Positions 7,801-27,159 of a stretch of 31,336 nucleotides of DNA are shown here, in pieces. A program made the position numbers and the translations under genes. The notes beneath the pieces are model-generated. The model was not told where the DNA came from, ran no database searches, and worked only from the letters and a program-made list of their open reading frames with translations. Every line of letters begins with the position of its first letter. Position 1 is the stretch's first letter. Source of the DNA: Chloroflexota bacterium (GTDB lineage: Bacteria > Chloroflexota > Limnocylindria > Limnocylindrales > CSP1-4); the NCBI GenBank assembly GCA_021801545.1, contig JAJYXX010000263.1, positions 1-31,336 of the forward strand, read 5' to 3'.

Positions 7801-8132
7801 CGCAGGAGGTTCGGGAGCACCTCTCCGCCGAGGTCAGCGCGAGATGCGTCGAGCACCCGGAGCTGGCCTGCTCCGCCGCGGTCACCGTAGCGCTCGACCC
7901 GGAAGGAACGGCCGTCCGTCATCTCGAGATCGAGCCAGCCGCCACGGCGACCCCCTGCGAGCGCGCGGTACTCGTTCGTCTCGAACCCGAAGAGGATGGC
8001 CCGAACGAAGGCGAGGAGCGTGCTCTTGCCGGCCTCGTTCTCGCCGCTGACAAGCGTCAGCCTGGAACTCGGGGTAAGGCGGTAGCCGTTGAGGAGGCCG
8101 AAGCCATCGACGGCAAGCTCCGTGATGCGCAT
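4809..8132 (-). CDS. yhaN: YhaN/SbcE-like SMC/Rad50-type ATPase (AAA_27), 1107 aa
   Basis: Walker A GENEAGKST, long coiled coils, signature LSRGTAEQ, Walker B/D-loop IVMDDVLVNFD, H-loop FTCH, central hydrophobic segment. Confidence 0.9.
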   Translation of the reverse strand: MRITELAVDGFGLLNGYRLTPSSRLTLVSGENEAGKSTLLAFVRAILFGFETNEYRALAGGRRGGWLDLEMTDGRSFRVERYGDRGGAGQLRVLDASRADLGGEVLPNLLRGVEKTVYRSIFAFGLGELTEFRRLTDEEVAARIYGAGLGLGGALDVEAQLKAERDGLFKPGGHNPVANELLRELDEVDSELRRLDLPAAYAADGERLVEIQAELDTLDIDLAARQADSRALERLIAAWPTWLELGAARADRAAIGAVLSLPTNALERYGVLDTNQQAAEETHKEVATRHQDAVEQMAALHIDERLLARRDEIESLVAAGAEDRARSGELARLGRDHQRARAELDAALERLGPAWTEERVAAFDDSIAVQTAISGRFRTLLEGVDGAVTAATGRLETNRTELEDTRRALEAVKARIEEIDEDLGTRGSVSDREAALQSIDNLRVRLEATRPAGEPPAEDVASGPSLADRLRMAAEARSLLEREQVLTSLAGSRAARPVGSWPMLAIAGAGVLGGAVVIAAGAPPVLAVAILLVALAAAGLVAWAVRGRGEVDRTSAGPAFQAGSERALATPLLEELGMPGSAGLAELQVTERTLDDERLVVARLADERERFERATAQTVELEGRLATELAAIGLDQNVGELDVFRRDLVRDRELEGRRSGLLEQRELHARGVANLEEREERLGAEVESSETRRQVARTEWARWLEEHGLETDLDRESAARVVDAVTTAKARLASASSFREQFGALAAAREAFERLVDESADLLEDGRGGRSSADIVRELARRLEETVRLNDRRGTLAGEIAELEQQAEKARAAAMTREEEVQALLDELGVPDAPSLRLEVERSSEAARLDGVIGSARAALTALSGPGEALATLEAALAEIADIDAVHGHAQDVAREIGDLDARRSTLLEESGAVRDRRASMERDVEATQKRQRRSDLQARLESVAEHWAVLAIAAEMVANARQAYEREHRPAVVSMAERYFRDWTAGRYERIVAPIGRQIEGVEHRDGTLVPLTGLSRGTAEQLYLAMRFGLVEHFAQGGEALPIVMDDVLVNFDPERAERAARSIEELANRHQILYFTCHPTTPLRPDSEIKLAALRGLGDSTVPA

Positions 8133-8134
8133 CG

Positions 8135-9484
8135 TCAGCCCTCCCCCGCCAGGCGGTCGGCGAGGATCGATTCGGCCTCGGCAACGAACTGGCCAAGCCG
8201 CTCGCGATCGGGGCGCGCGTCCCGCAGGTACCGGCGGGCCCGCTCGTGCGTGTACAGACTGTCGAGCATCGCAGAGAGCTGGTCCGGCTCCATCGGCGAT
8301 GTGCCAGCAGGTTCCGTCGGGGGTGACGCGGGGGGCGGATCAGCGGAGGCGAGCGCGGCCTGGGTCGCGTCGAACCGTCTCAGCAAGCCGCCCAGGAAAT
8401 CGTCGGCGAGTCGTCGGCTCGCGAGATCGACTTCGGCCGCCGTCTCGTCCCGTAGCGACTCGATCCAGGCGAACGGGACACTCTCGCCGAGCCGCTCTCG
8501 CGCAACGTCGCGAGCCTGGTCAAGGAGCCCGGGGCGGCGAAGAGATCGGTGGAGGGGTCCCCGCCCGGTGAGCGCGAGACGGACCACAACCGAACGGTCG
8601 GCGGCGACTCGGGCATCATCTGCCGCACGGGCGATCGCCTCCACGAGATCATCCTCAGTCGCGAGCCCCTCGATCGGGACGCGGATGAGTTGCCACCGGA
8701 CGGTGTCCGCGACACGGAACTCCGGGTGGATCCCGCCCGCCGCGTCCACGCTCACCACATAGCAGCCCCGGGGCTCGGTTTCGCCCGGATCGCGTCCCTG
8801 CGGGTTCCCGCAATAGACGGCGGTGGGGCGGTCTGAGAGGAGAACCCGGTGGCGGTGGATGTGCCCGAGGGCCCAGTAGTCCATGTCGGCCGCGCGGAGA
8901 TCACCGAGCGTGCACGGCGCATAGTTCGGGACGCCCTCGATCCCACCAACGTTGGCGTGAAGAAGCCCCACCGCGAAGGGGGTGTCGGGATCACGGCGGA
9001 ACCTGGCGGCAAGGTTCGTCGTGACGTCGCGCACCCGATAGCTGATGCCATAGACGCGGGCGATCTCCTCGCCATCGCGGGTGATCGGCATCGAAGTCAC
9101 GTGGTGGGAGTCAAAGCGATGGGCGAGCTCCGGCCACCGGACCGACGGCTCCCAGCCGGAAAGGGGGTCGTGGTTGCCCGTCACGACAAACGAGGGGATG
9201 CCCGCTTGGGCCATTGCGTCGAGCCCGTCGCGGAAGACGATCTGGCCGCGAAGCGTCCGGTTTGCCTGCTCGAAGACATCGCCTGCGACGACGACGAAGT
9301 CGACCGGCTCCTCGACGGCGATCCGCACAATCTCGCGCCACGAGCGGATCGTTGCCTCGCGGAGCAACTCGGCGACCGCGGGGGGCGCCTCCGTCGAGAG
9401 CCCGACGAACGCGCTGTCGAGGTGAAGGTCGTCGGTATGGAGGAACCTCAGCGGGCTCTCGCGTCGGCTACTGGCTGGCACCAC
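8135..9484 (-). CDS. yhaO: YhaO/SbcD/Mre11-family metallophosphoesterase nuclease, ~449 aa
   Basis: Motifs DLH, AGD, GNHD, LLH and GHIH all present. GTG 9484 follows a GGAGGGGG RBS. Stop is 2 nt from the yhaN start. Confidence 0.9.
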   Translation of the reverse strand: MVPASSRRESPLRFLHTDDLHLDSAFVGLSTEAPPAVAELLREATIRSWREIVRIAVEEPVDFVVVAGDVFEQANRTLRGQIVFRDGLDAMAQAGIPSFVVTGNHDPLSGWEPSVRWPELAHRFDSHHVTSMPITRDGEEIARVYGISYRVRDVTTNLAARFRRDPDTPFAVGLLHANVGGIEGVPNYAPCTLGDLRAADMDYWALGHIHRHRVLLSDRPTAVYCGNPQGRDPGETEPRGCYVVSVDAAGGIHPEFRVADTVRWQLIRVPIEGLATEDDLVEAIARAADDARVAADRSVVVRLALTGRGPLHRSLRRPGLLDQARDVARERLGESVPFAWIESLRDETAAEVDLASRRLADDFLGGLLRRFDATQAALASADPPPASPPTEPAGTSPMEPDQLSAMLDSLYTHERARRYLRDARPDRERLGQFVAEAESILADRLAGEG

Positions 9485-9966
9485 GGCCCCCTCCCTCTGC
9501 GCCGAACCGTGGCGCCCAGGCCGCTGAAGACCCGTCGCGCGCACTATCCCGCCAGGTCGATTCGCGACCTTCGAGCCGCTCACGCGCACATCCTACTCAA
9601 CTGTCGTGCCAGCTCACATGGCACACGGCGCCGTCAATCAGCTCGAAAATCGTCTCCCAATCCTTCGACAGCACTTGCCTCACCCCTCCCATCGGGGCGC
9701 CCGAGGCGCCAGTCTCCCGAGGCGCAGCTCAAGGACATGCGCTGTGACTTCCAATTCGACGATGCAGATCAGCCACGGCACGATCGTCCGGCAGAGCGTG
9801 CACATGTCGGTCCAGCAAGGCGATATCGCCGTGGCAGCGCTGAAGCGCGAGCGCCGGTTGCGTTGCCGCCGGTCGAGCATCCACGCGCAGCACGCCGGAA
9901 CGTGGCCGATCGCCAACAAGCGAGCCGGCAGGGGCTGCATTGCCGGCGGCGGACCTGCGGAGCCGC

Positions 9967-10254: not shown

Positions 10255-10480
10255 TCGGACCCTCCTTCGGGGAACGCCCACCCTTCAGTGTGACAGGCGC
10301 GGAAGGTCCCCCGGTCGCTACCTTCTGGTGCCGATGCGTTGCTCCGGGGTCCGTCCTGCCTCGAAGCCTATGCCGGACGAATGCCAGCTAGGTTGTCACG
10401 GCGGAGACCGATGCCCTCCGAAACTCGGCGACGACCTCGCCGCTGCACGTCGTCGCTCGCCCAAGCGTCGAGTCGGGGCG

Positions 10481-13617
<3,137 letters not shown>

Positions 13618-13621
<4 letters not shown>

Positions 13622-15378
13622 CGCTCGTCTTCCGCGTGCCACAGGGTCATCGGATCCTCGGCGACACGCCGACCCCGTGTGCTTCTGGGAGGCTTGGGGA
13701 ACCGTGGCCCCGGACCGTACTCCACCGCCGGCCCGCGCTGCTGTGGCGACGTCTTGACGAGGATCCCGCGCCGAATCAGGTCGTCGAGCAGGTTGTTCGC
13801 CGGGTGAACGGTCAGGTCGAAGAGGTTCTGCACGGTTCGGTTCGTGACCTTGCCGTACTCGCGGACGTGGGCGATCACCTTCCGATCGGTCTCAGCGGCC
13901 GTGCGCTGCTGGTAGGTGACCGCGGGACCGAGGGCGGCGAGGGCGCTCCCGCCGAGCCTGTAGCCCTGCGATCCGCTGCGACGCCCCCGCGTTGGCTCGA
14001 CCATCGCCGGCGGGTCCACGGCCAGCCGCCGGAGGATCGTTTCGGCCTCTGTGGGACCTCGCTGCAGGATGGGAGCGATCTCGGGAGCGGTGACAGTTCG
14101 GTGGGAGCAGAGGTGGAAAAGGATGAGCAGCGCATCGGTGTCGTCTCGCTCGACGGACGGCAGCTGGGCGACATAGCGGGCAATGTGGGTGTTCGGTGCG
14201 CCCCCGACCAGCCGCACTGCCACCTGGTCGGCGGATGCTTCGATGATGGGAACTCCTCGGCCGGCTCGGATCATCGCAACGTACATCCGGTCGACGCCCC
14301 GGCCGTATTCCTCGCCGAAGCCCAGGATCCGCGCCGCGTTCGCGAGCGCGCGGTTTCGCGGCATTGGCGGGTGGGTGAGGATGTTCTCGGGCGTCACGCC
14401 GGAGACGAGCGGCCCGGGCGAGGTGACGCTCAGGACGGCCGGCGAGTGCTCGACGACGACAGGCCCCCGCAGCTGATGGTCCCGATGGACGATCCCGTTC
14501 GCGATCGACTCGCGAACGGCGAGCTCGGGGAAGTCCTGGAGCTGAATCTGCTGCCCATCAGGAAGCGTGAGCGGCGTGCTGTTCAGCCGCGCACGCACCA
14601 CCTCCATGACACGTGGGAAGGCGATCACCAGTGGGGTTTCGAGACGCTCGGACGCCGTCGGCTCGCCGCCCGGCGTGGGCCGGAACTGATAGGCGATTCG
14701 TGGATTTCCGGTTGCGGCCGCCGTCAGCAGGAACTCGCCGGCGTGGTTAAGCATCCCGTCCTCGAGCAGGCCGAGCAGGCGCAGGAGGTCGAGGTCACTG
14801 CGTTGAGCATGCTCCCGACGCTCGTCCGGCAGGCCGGCCAAGGTCGCCCTGAGTGTTGCCATCGCGAGAGGCGAGACCTCATCGGGCCGGCGATCCGAGC
14901 GCTTTGCGGACCAGTCCACGCCGAGGCGGTCTTCTCGGAGACGAGCGACCTCGGCCGGCGACATCGGCTGACAGTCGTCGTTGATCCGCCGGTACGCCCG
15001 GCTCTTGCTGTCCGCGTAGACCTCGATCCCCTCCGGGACGAGAACCACGAGGAGCCGGACCCCGAAGTACGTCTGGGCCTCGACCTCGACCAGCAGGTTC
15101 GGCTGGGTCGTCGCGTGGATCGTCTTGCGGAGGCGGTCAGGATCAAGTGCTGTGCCCATGAGTGCCGCCGGACCGGCCGTGCGGTCAGAAACGCCGACGA
15201 CGACGGTGCCGCCGATACCGTTCGCCAGGCAGATGGCAGCTTCGGCGATATCGCGCTCGGTCTCCTCGGGGGTTGCCTTCTCTCGCTTGAACTCCAGGAC
15301 ACGCGATTCGAAGCTGGCGGCGCGCTGGCCGGCATGGACCGCACCGAGGATCGTCGGGAGATCGGACAGCGTGGCCAC
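13618..15378 (-). CDS. Schlafen/AlbA_2 + RecG-C/HATPase_c_4-like + wHTH protein, 586 aa
   Basis: E24-x4-E29-F-K31 and ANGIGG.VVVGV.D Schlafen motifs; central [14 protein letters not shown]...SPG...RN..LA...E.GRG.DRM; C-terminal helix-turn-helix-like regions. Confidence 0.85.
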
Positions 15379-15384
15379 GGTCCG

Positions 15385-15447
15385 GAGTTTGACCGGAGTT
15401 TAGTAAGACGTCAATCGTGTCGGCGCTACTAAACTCCCGCCAAACTC
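15385..15447 (-). promoter_or_regulatory. Inverted-repeat operator (21-bp arms, 21-bp spacer) over a promoter for the Schlafen-hsdR unit
   Basis: Arms 15385-15405 and 15427-15447 match 19/21 as inverted repeats; each arm has two AAACTC units 11 bp apart. Minus-strand TTGACG at 15414-15409, with weak CAAACT 17 nt later and GTG 7 nt after that. Confidence 0.6.
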
Positions 15448-15607
15448 ACCACCCGACGTGGAGCCCCACCGACACCCGCACAGGCATCCCCATTCCAGGT
15501 GTCCGACCCGCCTCTCGATTCTGAGCCTTTGGAGTTGACGCGTAGCCGACAGACAGAGGGAGCCTCGAGGTTGTGGTTGTCGAGGCATGTCCCCGGGTCG
15601 CGCCGCG

Positions 15608-16108
15608 CTACCGCGGCAGCAGACGGTCGACTTCGTCAGACGGAACGAGCGTGACCAGGTTCTTCTCCCTCATCACACCGACCTCGATCTGGGGATCATG
15701 CCTGGGGTCCCCGCCAACCACGATGAGGATCGGCTCTGGACAAGCGTACGCAGCGTCCTGCGAGAAGTCCTTGATCTGGGTCTTGTCACGGTCGCTCGGG
15801 GTGGCTGGCATGAATGGATGGAAGTGCCACTCGCCCAGGTAGTAGCGATGCCGTCGCCAAGCCCGGTCGACGTGTCCCTGGAGGCCAGCAAGCCCCCGGA
15901 TGAACGACGCGCGCCGACGGATCGAGTCGCTCGGCGGACCCGTCACCTCGGTGACGATGGCTTGGTCGTGGAGGTCGGTGTAGTGGCCGATCAGGACGCC
16001 ACCGGTCTCCTTGTGACCAGCCCTAACGCAGTGCTCGATGAGCCGACAATGGACGTCCCCGCTGATCACGACACCGAGCCGACGGTCGTTGGTCACGAAG
16101 GTCGTCAC
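15608..16108 (-). CDS. cap3: CBASS Cap3 JAB/MPN isopeptidase, 166 aa
   Basis: ETGG...EWHFHP...PSDRD is the JAMM motif. GTGA overlap with the cap2 stop. Confidence 0.92.
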   Translation of the reverse strand: MTTFVTNDRRLGVVISGDVHCRLIEHCVRAGHKETGGVLIGHYTDLHDQAIVTEVTGPPSDSIRRRASFIRGLAGLQGHVDRAWRRHRYYLGEWHFHPFMPATPSDRDKTQIKDFSQDAAYACPEPILIVVGGDPRHDPQIEVGVMREKNLVTLVPSDEVDRLLPR

Positions 16109-17946
16109 GGAGCAGTCTTCCGCAGACCCGTGAAGCGCCCGGCCTCATCCTCATCGCGCTCGAACACATAGAACCCGCAGGAGCCCGACGCGATGGGCCA
16201 CTGGTCATCGAGTAGGCTCACCGCGGCTGATGCCATCAACCAGACTTCGTCAGCGCGCGCGGGGAAGACAGGGTGGAAGCATCCGATCCCTTCCCACGGC
16301 CGCTCCTCGTCACGATCGAATTCTTCCTGGCCGAACGGCTGATATGCAAGATCGAAGTTGGCGACAGAGAAGCCCGACCCCTTGGCGACGAACGCGAAGA
16401 GGCGCTTGGCGTGCATCGAGAGCGAGAACGATGCGAACGTCGGCTCGCCATCCCACGGGAACGCCGTTATCGCCTTGAGCACCGCGTATTCGCCGGTCGT
16501 GTCGATCACGAGGTCGGCGGCCCGATACTGGTCCGCGCCATCCTGGGTCGGGAAGCCTGCGTTGACCGCCGACGCCCGGACGTTCGGCGAGAGGGCCGAC
16601 AGCCGTTCGGCAAGGGACTCCGCCTTGAAGGAACCCAGGTCGCTCATCGTGAGGGTGTGGCGAACGAGGTTGCCGGCCACCAGGCGCTCCGGGTCGACCA
16701 CGGTGATGTCGGTGACGCCAGCCCGAACGAGAAGTTCGCCGATGGGAGAGCCCAGCGCGCCGGCGCCGATCACCACAACGCGCTGCTCCGTCAAGTCGCG
16801 GTCCAGTCGACCGCGCGTCGCTAACTGGTCGGGGTGCCAGTTCTCGGACGGCGCCCAGTTGAGCGCCTCGCGGTCGGCAAGCGTGCCAGTCCGGCTGGTC
16901 TGCCACCAGCCCTCAGCGGTCCGCGGAGATCCGCTCATCGGTCGCCGCTCGAGCCTCGGCAGTTCGATCGCCTGCCAGTGCATCTGGCGCGCTGGCTCCC
17001 TGACCTTCTCAGGCACGGGAAAGCCGACCAACATCAGATGGGTGTCGTGGTCATGGAAGCGGTGCGTCCCGTCTCTCATCAAGCGGTCAAGGTCAACACC
17101 TTGCCCTCGGGCGACCGCCCGCAGTTCGCCCCAAGTTCGAGGCGCCTGGTAGGGCGACAGCGCGACGACGTCCGGAAACCGGACCCACATCGCCGACGGC
17201 TGTCGGCGTCCCACGATCGCCTGGCCCCACGACAGTCGGACCAGTTCCTCGCGGCCGAGCGACCGAAATGAGGCCACCACGTCGTGCCCGGTCGGCAACT
17301 TGAGAACCTCGGCGTGCCCGCTGGTGATCCGGGTCTGCGCCCATTGCGCCAGAGTCTCCGGGCCTTCGCGAAAGGCCACCAGCCGGGCCGCGGATCGGTG
17401 GTAGAAGGGCAACTCGAACCATTCGCCATCCACGACGAGCGTGCCATGTGAGGCCTGCCGCAACCAACCGCCGGCGCGCCTGACGTGCCAGGCCAGACGG
17501 TCCTCGGCAGAGCGCGGCTCGACCTCCTTGCTCGTCCGAAGGTTGCTCTCCGAGTCAGTCGCGACGCATAACTTGCCGCCCCGGTACGGCCGGCCGGGCA
17601 GCGGAACCGTGTTCGGCATCTGGTGCCAGAAGGTCTCGGTGATGCCGCCGTCAGCCGCGGGCCAGATGCCGATCAGGCCCGCCGGGTAGTTCGGTTCTGC
17701 AAGGACGTACCACGGCGTCGTCGGCGGGATCGGGAACTTGGTCCCGAGGTCGCCTGGCGTCAGGTCGACCCTGAGGCGCCAGCCCTCCTCACCGCGATGC
17801 CAGTCCTGGACGATCCGAACCTCGCCGAACTCATCGAGCGTTCGGCGAGCGGCGAGCAATGACTCCGGGACATCACCGCCTGTGGCCAAGCCCGTACCGT
17901 CCCGTGGTGACGACGGTCGACTTGGCGACCCGCTCGGTGAAGCCAC
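16105..17946 (-). CDS. cap2: CBASS Cap2 E2-E1 fusion (start codon uncertain)
   Basis: N-terminal E2-like domain with KLC; ThiF/E1 domain VIGAGALGS...VDPE...N..RH; C-terminal GCFHPVFPA cysteine. Confidence 0.9.
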   Translation of the reverse strand: MASPSGSPSRPSSPRDGTGLATGGDVPESLLAARRTLDEFGEVRIVQDWHRGEEGWRLRVDLTPGDLGTKFPIPPTTPWYVLAEPNYPAGLIGIWPAADGGITETFWHQMPNTVPLPGRPYRGGKLCVATDSESNLRTSKEVEPRSAEDRLAWHVRRAGGWLRQASHGTLVVDGEWFELPFYHRSAARLVAFREGPETLAQWAQTRITSGHAEVLKLPTGHDVVASFRSLGREELVRLSWGQAIVGRRQPSAMWVRFPDVVALSPYQAPRTWGELRAVARGQGVDLDRLMRDGTHRFHDHDTHLMLVGFPVPEKVREPARQMHWQAIELPRLERRPMSGSPRTAEGWWQTSRTGTLADREALNWAPSENWHPDQLATRGRLDRDLTEQRVVVIGAGALGSPIGELLVRAGVTDITVVDPERLVAGNLVRHTLTMSDLGSFKAESLAERLSALSPNVRASAVNAGFPTQDGADQYRAADLVIDTTGEYAVLKAITAFPWDGEPTFASFSLSMHAKRLFAFVAKGSGFSVANFDLAYQPFGQEEFDRDEERPWEGIGCFHPVFPARADEVWLMASAAVSLLDDQWPIASGSCGFYVFERDEDEAGRFTGLRKTAP

Positions 17947-18988
17947 CGTCCTTGGGAGGCTCCGGGAACTCGGGGCCGAGGAGGGCCCGCCATCGCGTCA
18001 CGCTCTCCGCCACGGTGTCAGCATCGAGCGCCGCCCGGGCATCACCTGCCGCGCGGTCAACCAGATGCCAGAACGCCGCGAAGTCCTCAGGCGTGACCCG
18101 GCGGAATACGTCGTTCTCGGGGACACCGTGGTCGGGAAGGCTCGCGACGGTGCCGGTGGACACCGCATACCGGTAGTCGTCTCGGATGCGCTCGAACGAC
18201 CGCGTGAGGCCCTCGGCGACGGAGCCGATGTCGTTCGGGCAGACGTGGCCGAGCAGGTGCTCGAGGGGGTACCCCTTCGGGTACTCGGGCACCGCGTTGC
18301 GCTTCCGCCACCACTTGCCGCTCTTGACGATGTTCACGTAATGACTGTCGGTGAGGTCGTTCTTCTCCTCGGTCCAGCGGATCTGCTCGAGCGGATGCGT
18401 CGGGACCCAGATCTTCAGGGTCCGGTCCGGGATGAGGAGGCGCTCCTGCTTCCACTGCGCGTCGCCGGCCATCTTGCGCAGACCTTCGATCGCCTCCCGG
18501 AGCGCGACCGGGCCGCCGTTGACATCGCCGCGCGCCTCAATCCGCCACTCGGTGGCGGCGGCCTTGGCGATGGCTTCCTGGATGACTTCGGACGGGGCCG
18601 CGGTGACGACAAGATCGAGCGTGACCGGCGTGTCGTCGAACCAGATCTTCATCGACCGGTCGTTGACCGACCAGTGGTCCTTGTAGTTGCCATCGAGGAA
18701 CGGTTTGAAGCGCGCGACCACCGCCGCCGGCGTCCAACTGTTCGGGTCAAGGGTCGTCACGACGACAAGGTCGACGTCGATGTGCTCGCCGTCCGCGAGG
18801 ATCCGCACGCCGGTGTGTCGGCGATAACTGCCCTGCAGGAAGGCATCGATGACGATCGCCTTGAGGTCCGGATCGGCGCCCAGACGCTCGCGCAGTTCGC
18901 GGTGCTTGGCCTCGCAGGCGTCGCGAAGTTCCGGCGTCAAACGGATGTCGCTCAGGAAGTCGGTGAAGTACGACGGGACCGCAGACAT
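17873..18988 (-). CDS. cdnD: CD-NTase (cGAS/DncV-like), CdnD-like clade, 371 aa
   Basis: FLQGSYRRHT...DVD...DLV motif; THPLEQIRWT.EKN, KWWR, YPKGYPLEH, DHGV.E.DV and GGFT...TGRYG track the Enterobacter cloacae CdnD sequence as recalled (alignment not run). Confidence 0.93.
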   Translation of the reverse strand: MSAVPSYFTDFLSDIRLTPELRDACEAKHRELRERLGADPDLKAIVIDAFLQGSYRRHTGVRILADGEHIDVDLVVVTTLDPNSWTPAAVVARFKPFLDGNYKDHWSVNDRSMKIWFDDTPVTLDLVVTAAPSEVIQEAIAKAAATEWRIEARGDVNGGPVALREAIEGLRKMAGDAQWKQERLLIPDRTLKIWVPTHPLEQIRWTEEKNDLTDSHYVNIVKSGKWWRKRNAVPEYPKGYPLEHLLGHVCPNDIGSVAEGLTRSFERIRDDYRYAVSTGTVASLPDHGVPENDVFRRVTPEDFAAFWHLVDRAAGDARAALDADTVAESVTRWRALLGPEFPEPPKDGGFTERVAKSTVVTTGRYGLGHRR

Positions 18989-18997
18989 GCGTTTCTC

Positions 18998-20518
18998 CTA
19001 CTGGCTCGGCGGAAGGCTGATGGCCGGCACGTACGAGCCGAGGGCGCGCGTGTCGAAATCGAACTCGTAGACGGTGGTCGGGCCCAAGCCTCGACCCAGG
19101 CGACCGAGGAAGAACACCAGGCCGTTCGGCGCGGCGACGAACAGGTGGATCTGGCCGCCTCGTTCCTCGGGCTTGCGGACCTTGGCGAGATGATCGATGG
19201 CGTCTCGTGCCAGCGCAAAGGCGTGGCATCCATTGCGAACGGCGGTGCCCGAGGGCTGAGGGACGGACAGGCCGACGATGCGGCCAACCGATGGCAGCTG
19301 CGAACTCACGTAGGCCTCGACATCCGCGCGGACGTTCTGGGTGATGCTGAGCGCCAAGGCGATATCGACGCCGGCCGAGGGCATGTCCTGCTCCCATGGC
19401 TCCCACAGCGGTCCGTCCGGCTCGGCCCCGGCCGAAGGCCAGGGCACCACCGCTGGCCCGGTGCGCTGCATCGGGATGACCTCCGCCCCGGCATGCGCAA
19501 GGTCCCAGCCCGCGGCGAAGGCGATCGCGTTGTGGGCGTCGAGGTGGAGCCGGTAGGTCTCGTTCGGTTGGACGCGCGCTTCGAGAAACGTCGAGATCTG
19601 GGGCGCGACGTCCGCGTTCCAGTCGACGCCGGTCTTGATCGAGCGGGCATGAAACAGCGGGACCAGGTCGAGGAGGTCCTCCGTCTCGTCCTCGAGGTGA
19701 GCGGCGTACGGTCGGCGGCTCCGGATCGCCAAGGGGCGGCCCGGCAGCGGATCGAGTCCGGCCGGACGCCAGAGGCCCTCGGCCTCCAGGACACGGCGCA
19801 GCGCCGGCTCGTCGAACTCGCGCTGACGGGTCTTCACGAAGCCGTGGGCGAGGTCGACGTACGGATGGCGGAGGCTTCCCGGCGGAACGAGCGACAAGCG
19901 GGCCGAGTCGAGCGCCGACTCCAGCAACCGGTCAACCTGATCGGGGCCGTACACCAGCAGCCGGAAGGGCTCAAGCGTCGTGCGCAGGTCGGCATCGGTG
20001 GTGAGCCCGAGGTGCGATCGCCACTGTTCGCGGACGACGCCGGTGGCCGATTTCGGGCCTCCGTCGAACAGAGAATCGAGGTTCAGTTCGCCGTTGGTGG
20101 AGGTCAACGCCGACAGCGGGTCGTCGGGATGGATCTGCCAGGGCGTCACGATCGTGTACCGCCCACGCAGCCCGGTGTCGGCGAAGGTCCGCTGGGCAAG
20201 GCGAAGCCGCTGAAGGAGCGAGAAGCGGGTCGCGTTGACGAACGCCGGATCGATCAGTGCTGCGGCGGTGATCCGCTTGCGATGGTCGACCTTGAACTTC
20301 GCCTGGTAGCAGTCCACGTCTACCGGCTGGCCCCACGAGTTGCGGTCTGGCCGGATCGGCAGGCTGACCACGTCGTCGAACGCTCGTCCGTAGCGGGCCA
20401 ACTCGAAACCGACGCTCGTCAGGACCGGCTCAGTTCGAAAAAGCCTGGCTCCTTCGAGCCAGAACCACCGGGCTTGGTAATCGAGGCCGAGGATGATCGG
20501 CCGGACCGAGTTCGCCAT
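18998..20518 (-). CDS. cap4: CBASS Cap4 effector: restriction-like endonuclease + SAVED, 506 aa
   Basis: ATG 20518: G.DYQAR.FW, AFDDV, YQAK (K74); SAVED motifs LHLDAH.AIAFAAG, LSIT, LFVAAPNG..F.LG, YEFDF. Confidence 0.92.
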   Translation of the reverse strand: MANSVRPIILGLDYQARWFWLEGARLFRTEPVLTSVGFELARYGRAFDDVVSLPIRPDRNSWGQPVDVDCYQAKFKVDHRKRITAAALIDPAFVNATRFSLLQRLRLAQRTFADTGLRGRYTIVTPWQIHPDDPLSALTSTNGELNLDSLFDGGPKSATGVVREQWRSHLGLTTDADLRTTLEPFRLLVYGPDQVDRLLESALDSARLSLVPPGSLRHPYVDLAHGFVKTRQREFDEPALRRVLEAEGLWRPAGLDPLPGRPLAIRSRRPYAAHLEDETEDLLDLVPLFHARSIKTGVDWNADVAPQISTFLEARVQPNETYRLHLDAHNAIAFAAGWDLAHAGAEVIPMQRTGPAVVPWPSAGAEPDGPLWEPWEQDMPSAGVDIALALSITQNVRADVEAYVSSQLPSVGRIVGLSVPQPSGTAVRNGCHAFALARDAIDHLAKVRKPEERGGQIHLFVAAPNGLVFFLGRLGRGLGPTTVYEFDFDTRALGSYVPAISLPPSQ

Positions 20519-20584
20519 CGTCTTGGGCAACCCACTCTGGGGGAGTCGGCGACATCGCCCCGGAGGCGATCCACCTTTCGGTGA

Positions 20585-20691
20585 ATGGTAGGGTGTGAGC
20601 CCGAGGTGTGTCAACGATATGAGCGTCACTTTTGTGTCTAGCCACGCTGACCGCCAGCCACGTTGACGCCGATTAGCCGGTGCCTCATGCT
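20585..20691. promoter_or_regulatory. Divergent promoter region between cap4 and the HTH regulator
   Basis: Minus strand TTGACA (20614-20609)-N18-TACCAT (20590-20585). Plus strand TTGACG (20663-20668)-N17-CATGCT. Confidence 0.5.
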
Positions 20692-21034
20692 GATGTACGT
20701 GGAGTCGTTCTACCGGGAGTTCGGCGAGAGGGTCCGTCGCGCCCGTGGCGAGCGGTTTAGCCAGGCCGAACTCGCGCGTCGGATCGGCATGAGTCGTGGG
20801 TCGATCGCCAACATTGAGGTCGGCCGCCAGCGGATCCCACTGCACTTGCTGACCGTCCTCGCACGCGAACTCGACGTCGAGCCAGCGGCCCTTCTTCCGG
20901 TTGGCGATGCCAATGCGGCAGATATCGTGCCAGCCGACCGCCTTCAGCGATTGCGCCCCGAGGATCAGACAGCGCTGCAGAAGGTCGTGCGGCGGGCCCG
21001 CGAAGAACGAGGCGCTTACGATGGGCAAGGCTGA
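20687..21034 (+). CDS. Xre-family HTH regulator (CapH/ImmR-like), ~115 aa
   Basis: FGERVRRAR...SQAELARRIGMSRGSIANIEVGRQ is a cro/C1 HTH. Divergent from CBASS; start 20687 or 20693. Confidence 0.85.
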   Translation: MLMYVESFYREFGERVRRARGERFSQAELARRIGMSRGSIANIEVGRQRIPLHLLTVLARELDVEPAALLPVGDANAADIVPADRLQRLRPEDQTALQKVVRRAREERGAYDGQG

Positions 21035-21542
21035 GACCGAAGCCATGCGCCTGCTCGCTGAGACAGGTCAATCAACGCAGGCACCCGTCGACATCGAGGC
21101 GATCGCTCGGCATCTCGGCGCCCAGGTCGTCCAGGAGAGACTGGATCGGTCGGTGTCCGGGATGCTGTACAGAGATGGCGACCATGTGGTCATCGGAGTG
21201 AACTCCGCCCATGTCGATCGCCGGCGGCGATTCACCGTCGCGCACGAGATCGGCCACCTGGTACTGCACAAGGGACGTCCCCTGGTCCTCGACCATGTCC
21301 GCGTGAACTTCCGCGACGCCAACTCGAGCACGGCGAGTGACCTCGAGGAGATCCAGGCGAACGCATTCGCGGCGGAAGTCCTGATGCCGCGTGACCAGGT
21401 CATCGCCAGCGCGAAGCGCCTGTTGGAGGACCGAACGATCACGGAAGCGGCCATCGTCGAGTACCTGGCCCAAGGCTTCGACGTGAGCGATCAGGCGATG
21501 GAATACCGGCTGATCAACCTGGGGTTGCGCCGGCAGGTCTGA
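21021..21542 (+). CDS. ImmA/IrrE-family Zn metallopeptidase (CapP-like), 173 aa
   Basis: RRRFTVAHEIGH (HExxH) and E.QANAFAAEVLMP; overlaps the HTH gene by 14 nt. Confidence 0.9.
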   Translation: MGKAETEAMRLLAETGQSTQAPVDIEAIARHLGAQVVQERLDRSVSGMLYRDGDHVVIGVNSAHVDRRRRFTVAHEIGHLVLHKGRPLVLDHVRVNFRDANSSTASDLEEIQANAFAAEVLMPRDQVIASAKRLLEDRTITEAAIVEYLAQGFDVSDQAMEYRLINLGLRRQV

Positions 21543-21615
21543 GCGCCTGGAGACACGCAAGCGGGCATGACGTCGTAAGCCGAATGCTCGGCTCCGCCTG
21601 GTGTCCGCTTGGCCA

Positions 21616-22953
21616 TTACAGCGCCCTCCCGATGATCCGCTCGGCGTCGTTCACCTGCAGCTCGCCGGAGAGGAGCTTGGGCAGCAGCGTGTCCCGCAGG
21701 GCGGCGAGCGTACGGCATTCTTCGAAGTTCGCTTCCATCTTGGCGCGAATCGGTCGTCCGATTTCCTCAAACCGCATCGCCAGATCCCCGTCGGGAAGTG
21801 CGAGGCGGAGCCTGGGGATGCTTCGCACGTTCAAGGCATCGAGGATCGTGCCCGCGTCGGTGTTCAGCGCAACTTCGTCCCGGAGGGCCTCCGACAGCAG
21901 CGCCTCGAGTAGGAAGGTGGGGTACTCAAAGGATGGCTTGCATCGAACGCCGGTCATGTTCCTGCCGAGCGCCGCGGTGAGTCCGCCTGGTATCTGGGCG
22001 ACCGCGCCAACGCGCCCAACGTTTGTGATCACGCAGTCACCGGGCGACGCCTCCAGTCTTGAGGTCCAGGCCCTGTAGTCGGATTCGTCAATGAGGTAGG
22101 TGTCGGTCATGTCCAGCAGGCCGTCGGCCCGGATGTTCGAGAGCTGGAGAAGGGGCCACCCATGCTCTCGTCGCTCCGGCTTCTTGGCGTGCGAGCAGTC
22201 GATGACGTCTGCGATGTCACCGAGCGGCGCAACCTTCCAACCCCTTGGGATCTCCCCTAGCTCCGAGACCGCGAACGAGTCCGGGAACAACAGGTCGGCG
22301 AGGTGCGGCGGGAGGCCGGGCTCGCGGCCTTCGGCCTTGGCGCGGACGGGGTCGAAGTCGACGAACCAGGACTTGAAGAGCGCCCGCGCGATCGCCTCCA
22401 GGGTCTCGTTCATCCGGCGGTTCAGCTCGATCTTGTCGTCCAGCGTGCCGAGGATGTGGGCGATGACGCGCTGCTCGGGGAGCGGAGGAAGCGCGAACGC
22501 GTAGTCCCGGATCTGGCCGCCGCTGATGTGCGGCACCGCGGTGCCTGTCTGGACTCCGGTGACGTACTCCGTGAAGGCGCGGCCACCGATCACGTACTTG
22601 AGGAAGCCAGTGTCCAGCTTCGCGGTGCCGCGCAGTCTGGCAACCCGTTGCACGAGAAGGGCGGGTAGATCCGAGTCGCGGACAGCCGCGTACTTGAGCC
22701 CTGCCTCGATCCACGGCCGATCCATTGCCAAGATCACGTCGCCTTCGCTCAGCCAGTAACTGTCGAGGTCTCCCATGCCTGAGGCCGGCCATCGCTTGGC
22801 GCCATCCCAACGAAGGACACCCTGCCCGACGTTGTCGCCTCTCAGGAGGCGTGGCGCTGTTGGATCGGTGGTGTAGTGCTGGCTCTCGAAAGGGAACCCG
22901 GTCACCAAGTCCACGACGTCGCCGAGCCGCACGATCGGCCACTCACCCGCCAT
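21616..22953 (-). CDS. hsdS: Type I RM specificity subunit, 445 aa
   Basis: Two TRDs separated by the conserved PPLPEQ..IAHILGTLDDKIELNRRMNETLE; C-terminal L..LRDTLLPKLLSGE. Confidence 0.95.
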   Translation of the reverse strand: MAGEWPIVRLGDVVDLVTGFPFESQHYTTDPTAPRLLRGDNVGQGVLRWDGAKRWPASGMGDLDSYWLSEGDVILAMDRPWIEAGLKYAAVRDSDLPALLVQRVARLRGTAKLDTGFLKYVIGGRAFTEYVTGVQTGTAVPHISGGQIRDYAFALPPLPEQRVIAHILGTLDDKIELNRRMNETLEAIARALFKSWFVDFDPVRAKAEGREPGLPPHLADLLFPDSFAVSELGEIPRGWKVAPLGDIADVIDCSHAKKPERREHGWPLLQLSNIRADGLLDMTDTYLIDESDYRAWTSRLEASPGDCVITNVGRVGAVAQIPGGLTAALGRNMTGVRCKPSFEYPTFLLEALLSEALRDEVALNTDAGTILDALNVRSIPRLRLALPDGDLAMRFEEIGRPIRAKMEANFEECRTLAALRDTLLPKLLSGELQVNDAERIIGRAL

Positions 22954-22975
22954 ACCCGAGCTCCCGCAGGTTCGC
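22943..22975 (-). pseudogene. Orphan HsdM-like C-terminal tail (ANLRELGYGG*) overlapping the hsdS start
   Basis: TAT GGC GGG TGA overlaps ATG GCG GGT GAG. The peptide parallels the resident HsdM end ENLARLGY. Confidence 0.5.
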
Positions 22976-23208
22976 GGCCTTGGCAAGATCCACGTTCGAC
23001 GCGAGCTCGGCCGGCTTGAAACCCCTGCCGTGCGCATTCTGGCTGCGGATCGAAGGCGCGGATGCAAAAGAGAGAACCCCGGCGGAGGCCGTTACCGGCT
23101 GATCCGACGGGGAGTAGATGTCGACACGGTAGTCTGAACGCTCGGGCCGGTCAATCAGGGCGATCGGCCACGTCCGAACCGGCCCTGACCCCACGCGGCG
23201 ACCGCCTG

Positions 23209-23556
23209 TCACCGCCCGCGATCCTCGAGGTCCCGCAGGAGCCGTTGCAGGGCGGGCTGGAGGGCTGGAACGTCTCGATTCGCCGCGTCCCAGACGATGT
23301 CGGCGTCGATCTCGAAGTACCCGTGGACCAGGACGTTCCGCATCCCGACGATGCTCGGCCACGGCACGTCAGGCGCGAGGGCACGAACATCCTCCGGGAT
23401 GCCTCGCGCGGCCTCGCCCAGGATCTGCAGGTTGCGCAGAAACCACACCTGGAGCAGCTCATCGCGCTCGAAGGACGCTCGATCGCGATCGCGATACCGC
23501 TCGATGGCTGCAATCGCATCGAGCATGTCCCTGAGTCGCTCCGCGGGATTCCTCAC
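23209..23556 (-). CDS. hepT: HepT/DUF86 HEPN RNase toxin, 115 aa
   Basis: RNVLVHGY fits Rx4HxY; GEAA motif; GTGA overlap with the upstream MNT. Confidence 0.92.
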
Positions 23557-23843
23557 ACCAGGACGGCCTCACGCAGCACGGTGCTGCGGATCCGTGCCTT
23601 CAGGCCGCGCACGGTCACGACGTCGACAGGGCGCCCGAGCAATGATTCGAGTTCGACCTGGAGGCCGCCGAGGTCGAGGAGTGACCTGCCGGGTTCCATC
23701 TCGACGAGGAAGTCGATATCGCTCGTCTCGTCTGCCTCTCCGCGGGCGACCGAGCCGAAGATTCGAACGTTGTGCGCCCCGTGCCGTGCGGAAACGCGGA
23801 GGATTTCCTCGCGCTTCCGCTTCACCAGTTGCTCAGTCGTCAT
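23553..23843 (-). CDS. mntA: MntA minimal nucleotidyltransferase antitoxin, 96 aa
   Basis: [16 protein letters not shown] fits GS-x10-DxD; LGRPVDVV. Confidence 0.92.
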
Positions 23844-23855
23844 ATCCCAGCGCCC

Positions 23856-24203
23856 TCACTCCTGCGTGGCACCCAACAGCGCACTGATCTCGCGACTGAG
23901 GATCGGCAACTTCGTCTCAAGGATGTCCCAGACCAGTCGGTCATCCACGTCGGCGTACCCGTGGATGAGGATGTTGCGGAAGTCGATGATGCTGCGGTGC
24001 TGGCTGACTCTGGTGGCAAGTTCCGGATCGCGTCTGGCGAGCTGCGCAAGGGCTTCACCGATGATCTCGAATTCGCGCTCGACCGCGGCGCGCAGCATGG
24101 CCTCACCAGCATAGTCGGCGAAGTTCTTGCCGGCGGTGAATTGCGCGAGCAACGTCGCAGCCTGCTGGATGTCGTAGAGGTATTTCCTGGCCTCAAGCCG
24201 CAT
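23856..24203 (-). CDS. hepT: HepT/DUF86 HEPN RNase toxin, 115 aa
   Basis: ATG 24203: [12 protein letters not shown]...AAVEREFEIIGEA...RNILIHGY. Confidence 0.92.
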   Translation of the reverse strand: MRLEARKYLYDIQQAATLLAQFTAGKNFADYAGEAMLRAAVEREFEIIGEALAQLARRDPELATRVSQHRSIIDFRNILIHGYADVDDRLVWDILETKLPILSREISALLGATQE

Positions 24204-24501
24204 AGAGCAACGCCTTGGTCTGATCGATGGACTGCCTGAAATAGGGGTTCTTGATGGCTGACGCGACCACCAGGTCCACCGGCCGCCCCAAGAGCCGCTC
24301 CAGAGATTCGAGCAGCCCGAAGTAGGCATCGGCGTACTGTCCCGCTGGCAGGCTCTCGAAGTCGACCAGGAAGTCGAAATCGCTCTGCTGCGGGTTGAAG
24401 TCGTCGCGCGTGGCCGAGCCGAACAGGGACAGACTGAGCACATGATGACGCCGACAGAGCTCCGCCAGCTCGGCGCGGTTGTTTTCGATCGAGGGGATCA
24501 C
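24193..24501 (-). CDS. mntA: MntA minimal nucleotidyltransferase antitoxin, 102 aa
   Basis: [17 protein letters not shown] (GS-x11-DxD); GTG start overlaps the hsdM stop. Confidence 0.9.
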
Positions 24502-26060
24502 GGGGCATCCTCCTTGCCGACACGGTAGCCGAGACGGGCGAGATTCTCACGTATGGCGGCATCGAGCCGCGCGCCTTCCTCGTATTGTGCCGCCAAGGTT
24601 TGCGTGAGGCGGCGCATCTTCTCGTCGAAGGGCTCGTCGTCCTCCTCGGCGGCCGCCGCTCCGACGTAGCGGCCGGGCGTGAGGACGTGACCGTGCTTCC
24701 GGATCTCGTCGAGCGGCGCCGCTCGGCAGAAGCCGGGCACGTCGGCGTATTCGCCCGCGCCCTCATCACCGCGCCAGGCGTGGTACGTGCCGGCGATCGT
24801 CGCGACGTCGTCGTCGGTCAGCTCGCGGTGGGTCCGATCGACGAGGGTGCCCATCTTCCGGGCATCGATGAAGAGCGTCTCGCCGCGCCGGTCGCGGAAG
24901 CGGCCGTTGCGCTTGTCGCGGGCGAGGAACCAGAGGCAAACCGGGATCTGGGTCGAGTAGAAGAGCTGGCCCGGCAGGGCGACCATGGCGTCGACGAGGT
25001 CCGCCTCGACGATCGATCGGCGGATCTCGCCCTCGCCGGACTGGTTCGTCGACATCGAGCCGTTGGCCAGGACGAAGCCGGCGATCCCGGTCGGCGCGAG
25101 ATGGCTGATGAAGTGCTGGACCCAGGCGAAGTTCGCGTTGCCCGCCGGCGGCTCGCCATAGACCCAGCGCTTGTCACCCCTGAGGAGTCCGCCCCGCCAG
25201 TCGCTGTCGTTGAAGGGCGGATTGGCGAGGACGTAGTCGGCCTTGAGGTCGGGATGGCGGTCGTTGTGGAAGGTGTCGCCGTGAGCGATCTGGGCGTCGA
25301 TCCCGCGGATCGCGAGGTTCATCTTGGCCAGGCGCCAGGTCGTGTAGTTGGACTCCTGGCCGTAGATGCTGATGTCGCCGAGCCGGCCGCTGTGGGCCTC
25401 GATGAACTTCTCGCTGCTGACGAACATGCCGCCGGAGCCGCAGCACGGGTCGTAGACGCGGCCCTTGTACGGCGCGAGCATCTCGACGAGGATCCGGACG
25501 ACGTGGGACGGCGTGTAGAACTGGCCGCCCTTCTTGCCCTCGGCGCTCGCGAACTGGGCGAGGAAGTACTCGTAGACCCGGCCGAGCGTGTCCTTCGCGC
25601 GGTCGGCGGGGGCCCCGAGCGCGATGTCGGTCACGAGGTTGATGAGCTGGCCGAGGCGCTGCTTGTCGAGGCCGGGCCGGGCGTAGTCCTTGGGCAGGAC
25701 GCCCTTGAGCGTCGGGTTGTCGCGCTCGATGGCGGTCATCGCGTCGTCGACGAGCGTGCCGATCGTCGGCTGGGGCGCGCTGGCCCGCAGGTGCGACCAG
25801 CGGGCCTCCTTCGGCACCCAGAAGATGCTCGCGGCACGGTACTCGTCGGGGTCCTCGGGGTCGGCGCCCTGGGAGCGGTCGGCCTCGAGATCGGCGTGTT
25901 TGGCCTCGAACGCGTCGGAGATGTACTTGAGGAAGATGAGGCCGAGGACGACGTGCTTGTACTCGGCGGCGTCCATGTTGTTGCGCAGGGCGTCGGCCGT
26001 TTGCCAAAGCCGCGCCTCGAGGCTGGCTTCCGGTCGCGCTGCCGTTGATCTGACCTGCAC
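24498..26060 (-). CDS. hsdM: Type I RM N6-adenine methyltransferase, 520 aa
   Basis: LW..ADALR N-terminus, [15 protein letters not shown] (SAM binding), catalytic NPPF. Confidence 0.97.
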
Positions 26061-26175
26061 CCGTCAAGCCCCCTTCGTCGTTCGCTGCGACCTAGTGTGC
26101 GATACCGCTCGGGCAGTCGTATGAACTTATGAGAGCCGCCGGAGCTCAGTCATCCCACCCGCTTCTGGCTTCGCC

Positions 26176-27159
26176 TCAGTAGGCCGCGAGCGTCCGGATC
26201 CCCTCGGCGATCTTCTCCGGGTTCACCATGAACCAGTCCTCGAGGACGTGGTTGTAGGGGACACCCGGCACGTCCGGTCCGGCGACGCGCATAACCGGGC
26301 CGTCGAGGTAGTCGAACGCCTCCTCGGCGACGATCGCGGCGATCTCCGCCCCGTAGCCGCCGAACCGGTTGTCCTCGTAGACGACGAGGCACTTGCCGGT
26401 CTTGCGAACAGACCCCAGCAGCGTCTCCCGGTCGAGCGGGCGCAGCGTGCGCAGGTCCACGACCTCGACGCTGATCCCCTCCTCGGCCACCCGCTCGGCT
26501 GCCTCGAGGGCGTAGTGGGCCATCAACCCGTAGGCGACGACGGTCACCCGGGTCCCGACCCTGGTCACGGCCGCCCGCCCGATCGGCACCGTGTACTCGC
26601 CGTCGGGCACGTCGCCCCGGACGCTCCGGTACATCTTCTTGTGCTCGAAGAAGAGAACCGGATCGTCGTCCCGGATCGCCGAGCGGAGCAGGCCCTTCGC
26701 GTCGTACGGGGTCGAGGGCACGATCACCTTCAGCCCCGGGACATGGGTGAAGAACGCCTCGACCGATTGCGAGTGATAGAGCGCGCCGTGGACGCCACCG
26801 CCATACGGGGCACGAATCGTGATCGGGCAGCCGAACGCGTTGTTCGAGCGGTAGCGCATCCGCGCCGCCTCCGAGACGATCTGGTTGAAGGCCGGGAAGA
26901 TGAAGTCGGCGAACTGGATCTCGGCAACCGGACGCAGCCCGTTCGCGGCAGCCCCGATCGAGGTCCCCACGATCATCGACTCGGTGAGCGGCGTGTCGAT
27001 CACCCGGGTCTCGCCGAACTCGGCATGGAGGCCATCGGTGACGAGGAAGACGCCGCCCTTCACGCCGACGTCCTCGCCCAGGACGATGATCGACGGGTCG
27101 CGCCGCATCTCCTCGCCGAGCGTGTCGCGGATCGCCTCGAGGAACGTCCGGATGGCCAT
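26176..27159 (-). CDS. bkdAB: 2-oxoacid dehydrogenase E1 beta (branched-chain type likely), 327 aa
   Basis: GEDVG..GGVF, DTPLTE, EIQFADF, GALYHSQS. Substrate class is inferred. Confidence 0.9.
   Translation of the reverse strand: MAIRTFLEAIRDTLGEEMRRDPSIIVLGEDVGVKGGVFLVTDGLHAEFGETRVIDTPLTESMIVGTSIGAAANGLRPVAEIQFADFIFPAFNQIVSEAARMRYRSNNAFGCPITIRAPYGGGVHGALYHSQSVEAFFTHVPGLKVIVPSTPYDAKGLLRSAIRDDDPVLFFEHKKMYRSVRGDVPDGEYTVPIGRAAVTRVGTRVTVVAYGLMAHYALEAAERVAEEGISVEVVDLRTLRPLDRETLLGSVRKTGKCLVVYEDNRFGGYGAEIAAIVAEEAFDYLDGPVMRVAGPDVPGVPYNHVLEDWFMVNPEKIAEGIRTLAAY

Follow-up and report, generated by a model that had tools for sequence, protein, structure and literature searches.

The DNA considered here, henceforth called the window, comprises 31,336 nucleotides from a Chloroflexota bacterium of the CSP1-4 lineage (Limnocylindrales). 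It is the whole contig C132 (JAJYXX010000263.1) of the metagenome-assembled genome (MAG) GCA_021801545.1. Its central part is occupied by a type I restriction-modification (RM) system, and between hsdS and the Schlafen-hsdR pair of this system lies a complete type II CBASS, an antiphage signalling system based on cyclic oligonucleotides. The latter consists of six genes on 5.9 kb and is delimited by two stop codons, that of cap3 at 15608 and that of capP at 21542. Read from right to left on the minus strand, the order of the locus is hsdM, mntA1-hepT1-mntA2-hepT2, hsdS, CBASS, Schlafen and hsdR; only capP and capH are found on the plus strand. The right flank is made up of housekeeping 2-oxoacid dehydrogenase genes, of which the one for E1-beta adjoins hsdM. 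The left flank is a metallophosphoesterase/AAA_27 pair. The high GC content gives rise to many spurious open reading frames (ORFs), which is why the reading frames were picked by third-position GC and then confirmed with Pfam and PADLOC (Table 1).

Table 1. Genes and other features of the locus, listed from left to right in window positions
Feature	Position	Strand	Assignment and remarks
hsdR	10481..13642	-	Restriction/translocase subunit, 1053 aa, full length; PADLOC REase_I E=0 (profile 2-1023 of 1029)
Schlafen	13618..15378	-	586 aa, GTG start, further cargo; Pfam SLFN_AlbA_2 2.1e-15, HATPase_c_4 1.5e-11
Four-box operator-like inverted repeat	15385..15447		63 bp; GAGTTT x2 / AAACTC x2, arms of 21 nt, 21 nt apart
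Left boundary zone of cargo	15448..15607		L083 homology ends at 15602; Schlafen-cassette homology begins at 15517
cap3	15608..16108	-	JAB/JAMM isopeptidase, 166 aa; PADLOC JAB 1e-45, Pfam Prok-JAB 9.6e-12
cap2	16105..17889	-	E2-E1 fusion, 594 aa from TTG 17889 (most likely start); PADLOC E1-E2 3.1e-166
cdnD	17873..18988	-	CD-NTase, 371 aa; PADLOC Cyclase PDLC00822 1.4e-115, Pfam SMODS 3.7e-21
cap4	18998..20518	-	Nuclease-SAVED effector, 506 aa; PADLOC Endonuclease effector 1.5e-125 (profile 1-506 of 506), Pfam SAVED 1.5e-27
Divergent promoter/operator region	20519..20686		P_cap4 on the minus strand: -35 TTGACA 20614-20609, -10 TACCAT 20590-20585
capH	20687..21034	+	HTH repressor, 115 aa from ATG 20687; Pfam HTH_3 2e-09, PADLOC capH 1.4e-11
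capP	21021..21542	+	M78 Zn-metallopeptidase, short form, 173 aa; Pfam Peptidase_M78 3.7e-22, PADLOC capP 4.4e-32
Convergent capP stop/hsdS stop junction	21543..21615		73 bp, right cargo boundary; homology ends
hsdS	21616..22953	-	Specificity subunit, 445 aa from ATG 22953; PADLOC Specificity_I 1.4e-91 (profile 1-444 of 446)
Two tandem MNT-HepT toxin-antitoxin pairs	23209..24501	-	In hsdM-hsdS gap; Pfam, PADLOC PDC-S09
hepT2	23556-23209	-	
mntA2	23843-23553	-	
hepT1	about 24200-23856	-	
mntA1	24501-24193	-	
hsdM	24498..26060	-	Type I methyltransferase, 520 aa, first scaffold gene; Pfam N6_Mtase 2.2e-104, HsdM_N 7.5e-27

A preliminary description of this DNA had claimed a complete type II CBASS of the CdnD/Cap4 family with intact catalytic motifs, inserted between hsdS and Schlafen-hsdR. 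In this respect it was right: PADLOC matched all four core genes as well as capH and capP, the limits 15608-21542 are exact, and the comparison of catalytic residues with solved structures (7d48/7ljl, 7yia/7yib, 7to3, 7t5t) revealed no loss. CdnD, a cGAS/DncV-like nucleotidyltransferase (CD-NTase), is best aligned to the cAAG synthase 7d48 (8.1e-69) and, in the alignment to 7d48/7ljl, keeps the GS, DVD and LDL motifs (GS/DxD/D). Cap4 combines an N-terminal nuclease with a C-terminal SAVED domain, i.e., a sensor domain is fused to a killing domain; it matches 7yib in the PDB (9.1e-65) and retains the D..QxK signature of the nuclease, including the lysine that is mutated in 7yia. Cap2 can be aligned over its full length with 7to3 (4.4e-74), and E2 Cys127 and the E1 cysteine are present where the inactive construct has alanine. 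Cap3 displays the active-site motifs ETGG and EWHFHPFMPATPSDRD (HxHx7SxxD pattern), CapP the HEIGH motif. The CBASS thus belongs to the CdnD/Cap4 family, and it is from this kinship that we infer its nucleotide product and the ligand of its effector.

The core genes are tightly packed: cap4 and cdnD are separated by 9 nt, cdnD and cap2 overlap by 17 nt and cap2 and cap3 by 4 nt. The start of cap4 had to be corrected to 20518 from the first ATG of its ORF (21046); within this ORF the profile is matched from residue 177 onwards. For cap2, TTG 17889 is most likely the start, as the resulting 594 residues are also called in relatives. The nearest described counterpart is the Enterobacter cloacae CdnD02-Cap2-Cap3-Cap4 system, from which the structures 7d48/7ljl, 7to3 and 7yib derive. 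It comprises the same four families, with full-length alignments (8e-69, 4e-74 and 9e-65) and all catalytic residues shared, the same SAVED-nuclease effector and the same E1/E2/JAB control of the CD-NTase C-terminus. The sequences, however, are distant, and the system described here differs by its cap4-first order, by a CdnD extension of five residues, by divergent CapH/CapP and by its high-GC uncultured host.

The regulators are transcribed away from cap4 across 168 bp. The ORF of capH opens at TTG 20663, while a length of 115 aa is called in relatives; its 3' end overlaps the start of capP by 14 nt. TTGACA-18-TACCAT is the sole sigma-70-like match in the 13.5 kb scanned, and upstream of its -35 hexamer there is a block of ~35 nt with the palindrome GCTGGC-G-GTCAGC (GCTGrC-G-GTCAGC over the window and the related loci L083 and L084). 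The hexamers and the palindrome are kept in L083 and in L084, which is a 74% relative, whereas their surroundings diverge. In the model system the conserved site to which CapH binds lies upstream of the -35 (10.1101/2022.04.27.489752), and by analogy the palindrome block is a candidate CapH site. The CapH/CapP pair is found with type I, II and III CBASS (Lau et al. 2022, 10.1101/2022.04.27.489752), and in the operons described there an HTH gene is likewise followed by an M78 gene on the opposite strand upstream of the core, and a block ahead of the -35 is conserved. The present CapP, however, differs from the solved one of 291 aa: with its 173 residues it has neither the linker nor the C-terminal GAF domain. 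Its match to 7t5t covers chain residues 89-147 only, and the PADLOC profile is matched at positions 4-154 of 242; instead of the three-domain architecture with its GAF domain, the window CapP is a peptidase domain alone. The same length of 173 aa is seen in L083, L084, L086, L106 and L108. In three of these (L086, L106, L108) the regulators follow cap3 on the same strand rather than standing divergently upstream.

The nearest CdnD homologues, 93% identical in amino acids, are encoded on three independent metagenome contigs. The one among them with DNA, L083, shares 94.9% identity with window 15602-21717 and has the arrangement hsdM-hsdS-capP/capH<>cap4-cdnD-cap2-cap3. Between it and the window dN/dS is 0.24 overall and 0.65 for cap3 alone; the overall value means that the CBASS genes are kept by selection. 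More remote relatives live in other company. L084 presents the same six genes beside N6_N4_Mtase, Abi_C and a recombinase; further contexts in the clade are CoiA/TetR (L086), an IS21 helper (L106), NERD (L108) and an integrase with GmrSD (L110). In L084, L086, L108 and L110 the six-gene module has no type I RM in its neighbourhood, and because it occurs outside such systems, it must be regarded as mobile among defence islands and independent of the type I enzyme. The copy in L106, a 75% relative, deserves a remark: cap4 appears to be split into an ORF of 137 aa and a SAVED ORF of 305 aa (L106:114-1633), with IS21 IstB at the module end, and this CBASS may be a decaying one.

The scaffold into which the module is built is of the type I RM kind throughout. 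HsdS has two target-recognition domains, and its nucleotide match to relatives is confined to the central (22207-22499) and the C-terminal (21629-21736) conserved regions. HsdR shows the Pfam domains HSDR_N, SWI2_SNF2, ResIII and T1RH-like_C. All three hsd genes are on the minus strand. That hsdS and hsdR might stem from unrelated RM systems, a possibility raised in the preliminary description, was not borne out: hsdM and hsdR co-occur in L003, L005, L006 and L011 at 82-85% and 78-80% identity, respectively, and in L090, L095 and L098 at 83-93% and 80-84%. Because these two genes travel together at matching identities, hsdM, hsdS and hsdR are to be taken as one RM system, as judged from sequence comparison. 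The Schlafen gene, 95-97% identical in L090, L092, L098 and L105, overlaps the start of hsdR by 25 nt with its 3' end.

The CBASS is not the only passenger. The earlier inventory of the locus was correct for CBASS, hsdS, Schlafen and hsdR; it had overlooked the two MNT-HepT pairs in the gap between hsdM and hsdS (Pfam NTP_transf_2 2.8e-12 and 7.1e-16; HepT-like 3.1e-19 and 3.4e-27). These genes are interlocked by start/stop overlaps of 4 nt among themselves and with hsdM. No MNT-HepT pair is seen in L083, the second pair recurs with 97-98% identity in L098, and both are present at lower identity in L101/102. The scaffold therewith carries three separate cargo blocks at once: the MNT-HepT pairs, the CBASS and Schlafen.

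How common such cargo is may be judged from the 80 nearest hsdR loci, which are 69-81% identical and spread across many phyla. The gap between hsdS and hsdR could be scored in 64 of them, that between hsdM and hsdS in 57. Relatives with contiguous hsdS and hsdR do exist, yet they number only nine (9/64); in the other 55 the two genes are held 0.4-7.4 kb apart by defence-type cargo, and the 7.97 kb of the window is the largest gap seen. The hsdM-hsdS gap holds cargo in 35/57 loci. Among the 137 cargo ORFs situated between hsdS and hsdR are AAA_15/AAA_21, OLD/Gabija-like ATPases, Abi_C, RhuM, Schlafen, Fic, Mrr, SIR2, ThsB-TIR, KwaB and AbiP2 reverse transcriptase; the Schlafen pair AlbA_2 plus HATPase_c_4 accounts for 5 of the 137. 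Not one of the 80 carries a CBASS. For this RM lineage it is thus ordinary to hold cargo between hsdS and hsdR.

The closest relatives allow the slot to be read as an allelic series. L090, L098 and L101/102 share the operator-like repeat and Schlafen at 95-97% identity and are devoid of CBASS. Their hsdM, like that of L095, is 83-95% identical to that of the window, and related hsdR genes are present too. L095 has the chromosomal E1-beta/hsdM flank in common with the window; it contains neither CBASS nor Schlafen. Finally, L092 and L105 possess the operator-Schlafen cassette (96% identical) and no hsdM. At the position of the CBASS the closest relatives carry a DUF4145-like pair, DUF4209 (PDC-S39), DUF4357 (PDC-S14), Abi_C or a TPR-PIN protein of 1291 aa. 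This cargo region also contains isolated pieces of the 5' part of hsdR (covering residues about 1-165) at L090:6494-6973, L101:3428-3856 and L102:8994-9422, with further cargo and a full hsdR downstream of them. They resemble the scars that recombination within the 5' end of hsdR would leave when cassettes are exchanged.

The borders of the CBASS cargo are sharp. On the right, homology to L084, which is a non-RM context, stops at 21547, just 5 nt past the capP stop, while homology to the CBASS-free RM relatives is lost at 21629-21639, within the conserved hsdS 3' end, and regained only at 15517. The junction between the convergent stops folds to -32.1 kcal/mol on the minus strand (z -2.2), and has no U tract. 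A long hairpin, equally devoid of a U tract, extends from the cap3 stop (15610-15543; -31.9 kcal/mol, z -2.8). Its fold is not significant in L083 or L084, and a conserved terminator after cap3 was discarded for this reason. A scan for consensus terminators gave 5 sites where 4.6 were expected, none of them at any junction, and an Rfam search of 13000-26500 matched no family. The search for repeats flanking the 5.9-kb module, be it target-site duplications or transposon ends, yielded chance-level matches only, and neither recombinase nor transposase is encoded in 10481-26060. Insertion of the CBASS as a transposon was rejected on these grounds.

The four-box inverted repeat between cap3 and Schlafen is unique in the genome and sits 7 nt upstream of the Schlafen GTG. 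A metagenome scan with its inner arms retrieved 18 contigs, several of them closely related to this RM locus. Compared with the copy of L083 (L083:8287-8349), the hexamers are invariant and the sequence on either side is unrelated. Because the substitutions are non-compensatory and confined to the spacers between the hexamers, an RNA hairpin was dismissed and a protein-binding site is favoured. The repeat precedes Schlafen in L090, L092, L098, L101 and L105, RhuM-Fic and then hsdR in L099 (1300-1340), and hsdR directly in L095 (5395-5435), where the outermost box is missing. In L083 it is followed by a partial ORF of 116 aa, which matches nothing in Pfam and for which neither the compared loci nor the genome offer a relative. 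Since the first gene behind it varies in this manner (Schlafen, RhuM-Fic, another gene or hsdR itself), the repeat would be a control element of the hsdR unit rather than a switch specific for Schlafen. This has a bearing on the previous proposal that the insertion of the CBASS uncoupled hsdMS from hsdR. It cannot be upheld: 55 of the 64 loci already have cargo at this place, and because the operator precedes the hsdR unit also in the CBASS-free L090, L095, L098 and L099, hsdR appears to have been separately controlled before. Moreover, separate promoters for hsdR and hsdMS are the classical arrangement, as in EcoKI (PMC12707154).

Taken together, these data are best explained by an autonomous type II CBASS that occupies, as exchangeable cargo, the hsdS-hsdR slot of a locus with three separately controlled units, a reading to which we assign a probability of roughly 0.8. 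The mode of action is deduced from the families involved. Repression of the divergent promoter by CapH would be lifted by the short peptidase CapP. The cap4-cdnD-cap2-cap3 transcript would then yield a CdnD-type CD-NTase that is primed or regulated at its C-terminus by Cap2 (E2-E1) and Cap3 (JAB). Its cyclic oligonucleotide would activate the nuclease-SAVED protein Cap4, whereupon DNA is degraded and the infection aborted. The three presumed transcription units are the CBASS, hsdM with its toxin-antitoxin genes and hsdS, and Schlafen-hsdR. The CBASS is considered a unit of its own because it has its own conserved promoter and because the antisense capH-capP pair separates it from the hsdM-hsdS part. 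As to its arrival, homologous recombination in the flanks, not a transposase or integrase, is the most likely route; the cargo would have been acquired by exchange in the conserved hsdS 3' region and in the stretch immediately preceding the operator of the hsdR unit. With sharp breakpoints, hsdR scars and no recombinase, transposase or flanking repeat, such an exchange is the most economical assumption. The linkage would then serve the co-inheritance of layered defence and need not reflect an obligatory functional coupling.

Some observations do not fit smoothly into this picture. In L109:1920-13483 a cap4-cdnD-cap2-cap3 set with a CdnD of 59% identity lies directly downstream of, and co-oriented with, contiguous hsdM-hsdS-hsdR, an integrase following further on; this adjacency hints at a non-random association of CBASS with RM, unlike what pure random cargo would lead one to expect. 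The tail of CdnD (window 17873-17905) runs TTGRYG and then LGHRR, five residues beyond GRYG, so that priming of CdnD by Cap2 would seem to require prior trimming, by which a C-terminal Gly would become exposed. In the proteins P0001-P0040 many tails end at GRYG or GRFG, others show a second xGRFG, xGRHG or xGRYG, and the extension ends in RR in the window and in P0001. The lack of the GAF domain of the characterised CapP implies that the trigger may differ. Moreover, the cap3-Schlafen spacer of 229 bp is without a canonical terminator, and some co-transcription is possible. Finally, the activity of the CBASS and of the RM system is predicted here from the genes of a MAG. It may be added that the second, xGRFG-type CdnD extension resembles a tandem conjugation motif.

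The spacer just mentioned is also the starting point for a different view, according to which transcripts of cap4 under CapH/CapP control read through cap3 into Schlafen-hsdR, so that damage or infection would raise them all. Indeed, cap4-cdnD-cap2-cap3, Schlafen and hsdR are co-oriented, and from the 96.7% co-orientation of embedded genes a co-regulation was suggested by Payne et al. (10.1101/2024.01.29.577857). However, two strong hairpins stand in the path, the one after cap3 and that of the operator with its 21-bp stem; CBASS-free relatives, too, keep the operator ahead of the hsdR unit; in L083 another gene stands behind this CBASS and operator; and the module acts as a unit in non-RM contexts. 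DNA damage, moreover, normally lowers HsdR activity by restriction alleviation (PMC12707154). We therefore consider such a coupling unlikely. The same scepticism applies to its more ambitious version, in which one damage signal, via read-through from the CapH/CapP promoter, arms the Cap4 nuclease, the Schlafen RNase and HsdR together, while a platform of defence-gene cassettes is anchored for recombination at two fixed points, the operator and the hsdS 3' end; it, too, is rather improbable.

Another kind of dependence is known from PrrC, which lies between hsdS and hsdR in EcoprrI (PMC3874165). By analogy, the CBASS could be held in check by the type I enzyme and sense its inhibition or failure. 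The identical position, the fact that the lineages of both the window and L083 keep the CBASS beside hsdS, and the related CBASS directly after hsdMSR in L109 might be quoted in its favour. A guard, however, should be embedded almost exclusively in RM systems, and the four loci without a type I neighbour contradict this, as does the absence of CBASS from the 80 nearest hsdR loci; the CBASS also brings along its own sensor and regulator set. Such a guard function is very improbable. Nor do we give credit to the trivial possibility that the nesting is a chimera of assembly or binning, or the CBASS a decaying remnant. Of course, the MAG is only 76% complete and split into 442 contigs, with a GC content of 0.63-0.70 the island falls short of the mean of the genome (0.71), and the dN/dS of cap3 alone is 0.65. 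Yet the hsdS-capP and cap3-operator junctions are reproduced by L083 and two further contigs, all from independent assemblies of other samples, and the order operator-Schlafen-hsdR by L090, L092, L098 and L105. Because independent assemblies reproduce the junctions, the nesting is not chimeric, and a relic would hardly display intact ORFs with all catalytic residues and the overall dN/dS reported above. An artefact or a relic is very improbable. The autonomous CBASS as exchangeable cargo thus remains the preferred reading.

Defence genes are often embedded in type I RM systems, a setting to which the term "guilt-by-embedding" refers (Payne et al. 2024, 10.1101/2024.01.29.577857). DarTG2 is placed between hsdS and hsdR in the RRDM island of enteropathogenic Escherichia coli (EPEC), a site that has been proposed to be a recombination hotspot (PMC12255303), and TgvAB is embedded in a type I RM system of V. 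cholerae VPI-2 (PMC11411939). As in these published cases, the hsdS and hsdR genes that enclose the cargo of the window belong to a single, co-oriented RM system, the slot is filled otherwise in relatives, and the site behaves like a hotspot of recombination; of the PDC families of Payne et al., S05, S09, S14, S23 and S39 are met among the cargo. In contrast to their cases, the cargo consists of six genes with divergent regulators of its own, so that four of the six are co-oriented with the scaffold and capH and capP oppose it. CBASS is not mentioned in the main text or the available supplements of that study. The locus neatly illustrates an embedding habit that is already known; it does not represent a novel type of system. 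What is particular is the full type II CBASS with its divergent CapH/short-CapP switch, the three cargo blocks and the allelic series resolved to the base. It adds to embedded defence a well-resolved instance in which a self-regulated type II CBASS can be delimited at base level, alternative cargo is seen in near-identical scaffolds and scars of hsdR are left behind. This should be useful for studies on the shuffling of defence islands and for gene discovery via guilt-by-embedding; the known mechanisms of CBASS and type I RM stay as they are.

A few observations in the surroundings are worth recording. The pair directly downstream of hsdR (4809-9589, minus strand), a metallophosphoesterase of 484 aa and an AAA_27/SMC-like ATPase of 1107 aa, yields weak PADLOC matches to mad3, LmuB, JetC and GajA and may represent another defence module in this island. 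Elsewhere in the MAG, at an unrelated locus (contig C91:5015-5570), there is a 556-bp relic of an hsdR 3' end, 91% identical in nucleotides and 89% in amino acids to window 10474-11029. It was considered as an alternative allele of the locus and rejected, since it is a 3' relic only and no hsdR sequence lies upstream of it. Near the left end of the window, in the HNH/MNT region, a stretch of 240 bp (1548-1786) is 97.5% identical to contig C7:2964-3203 of the same MAG.

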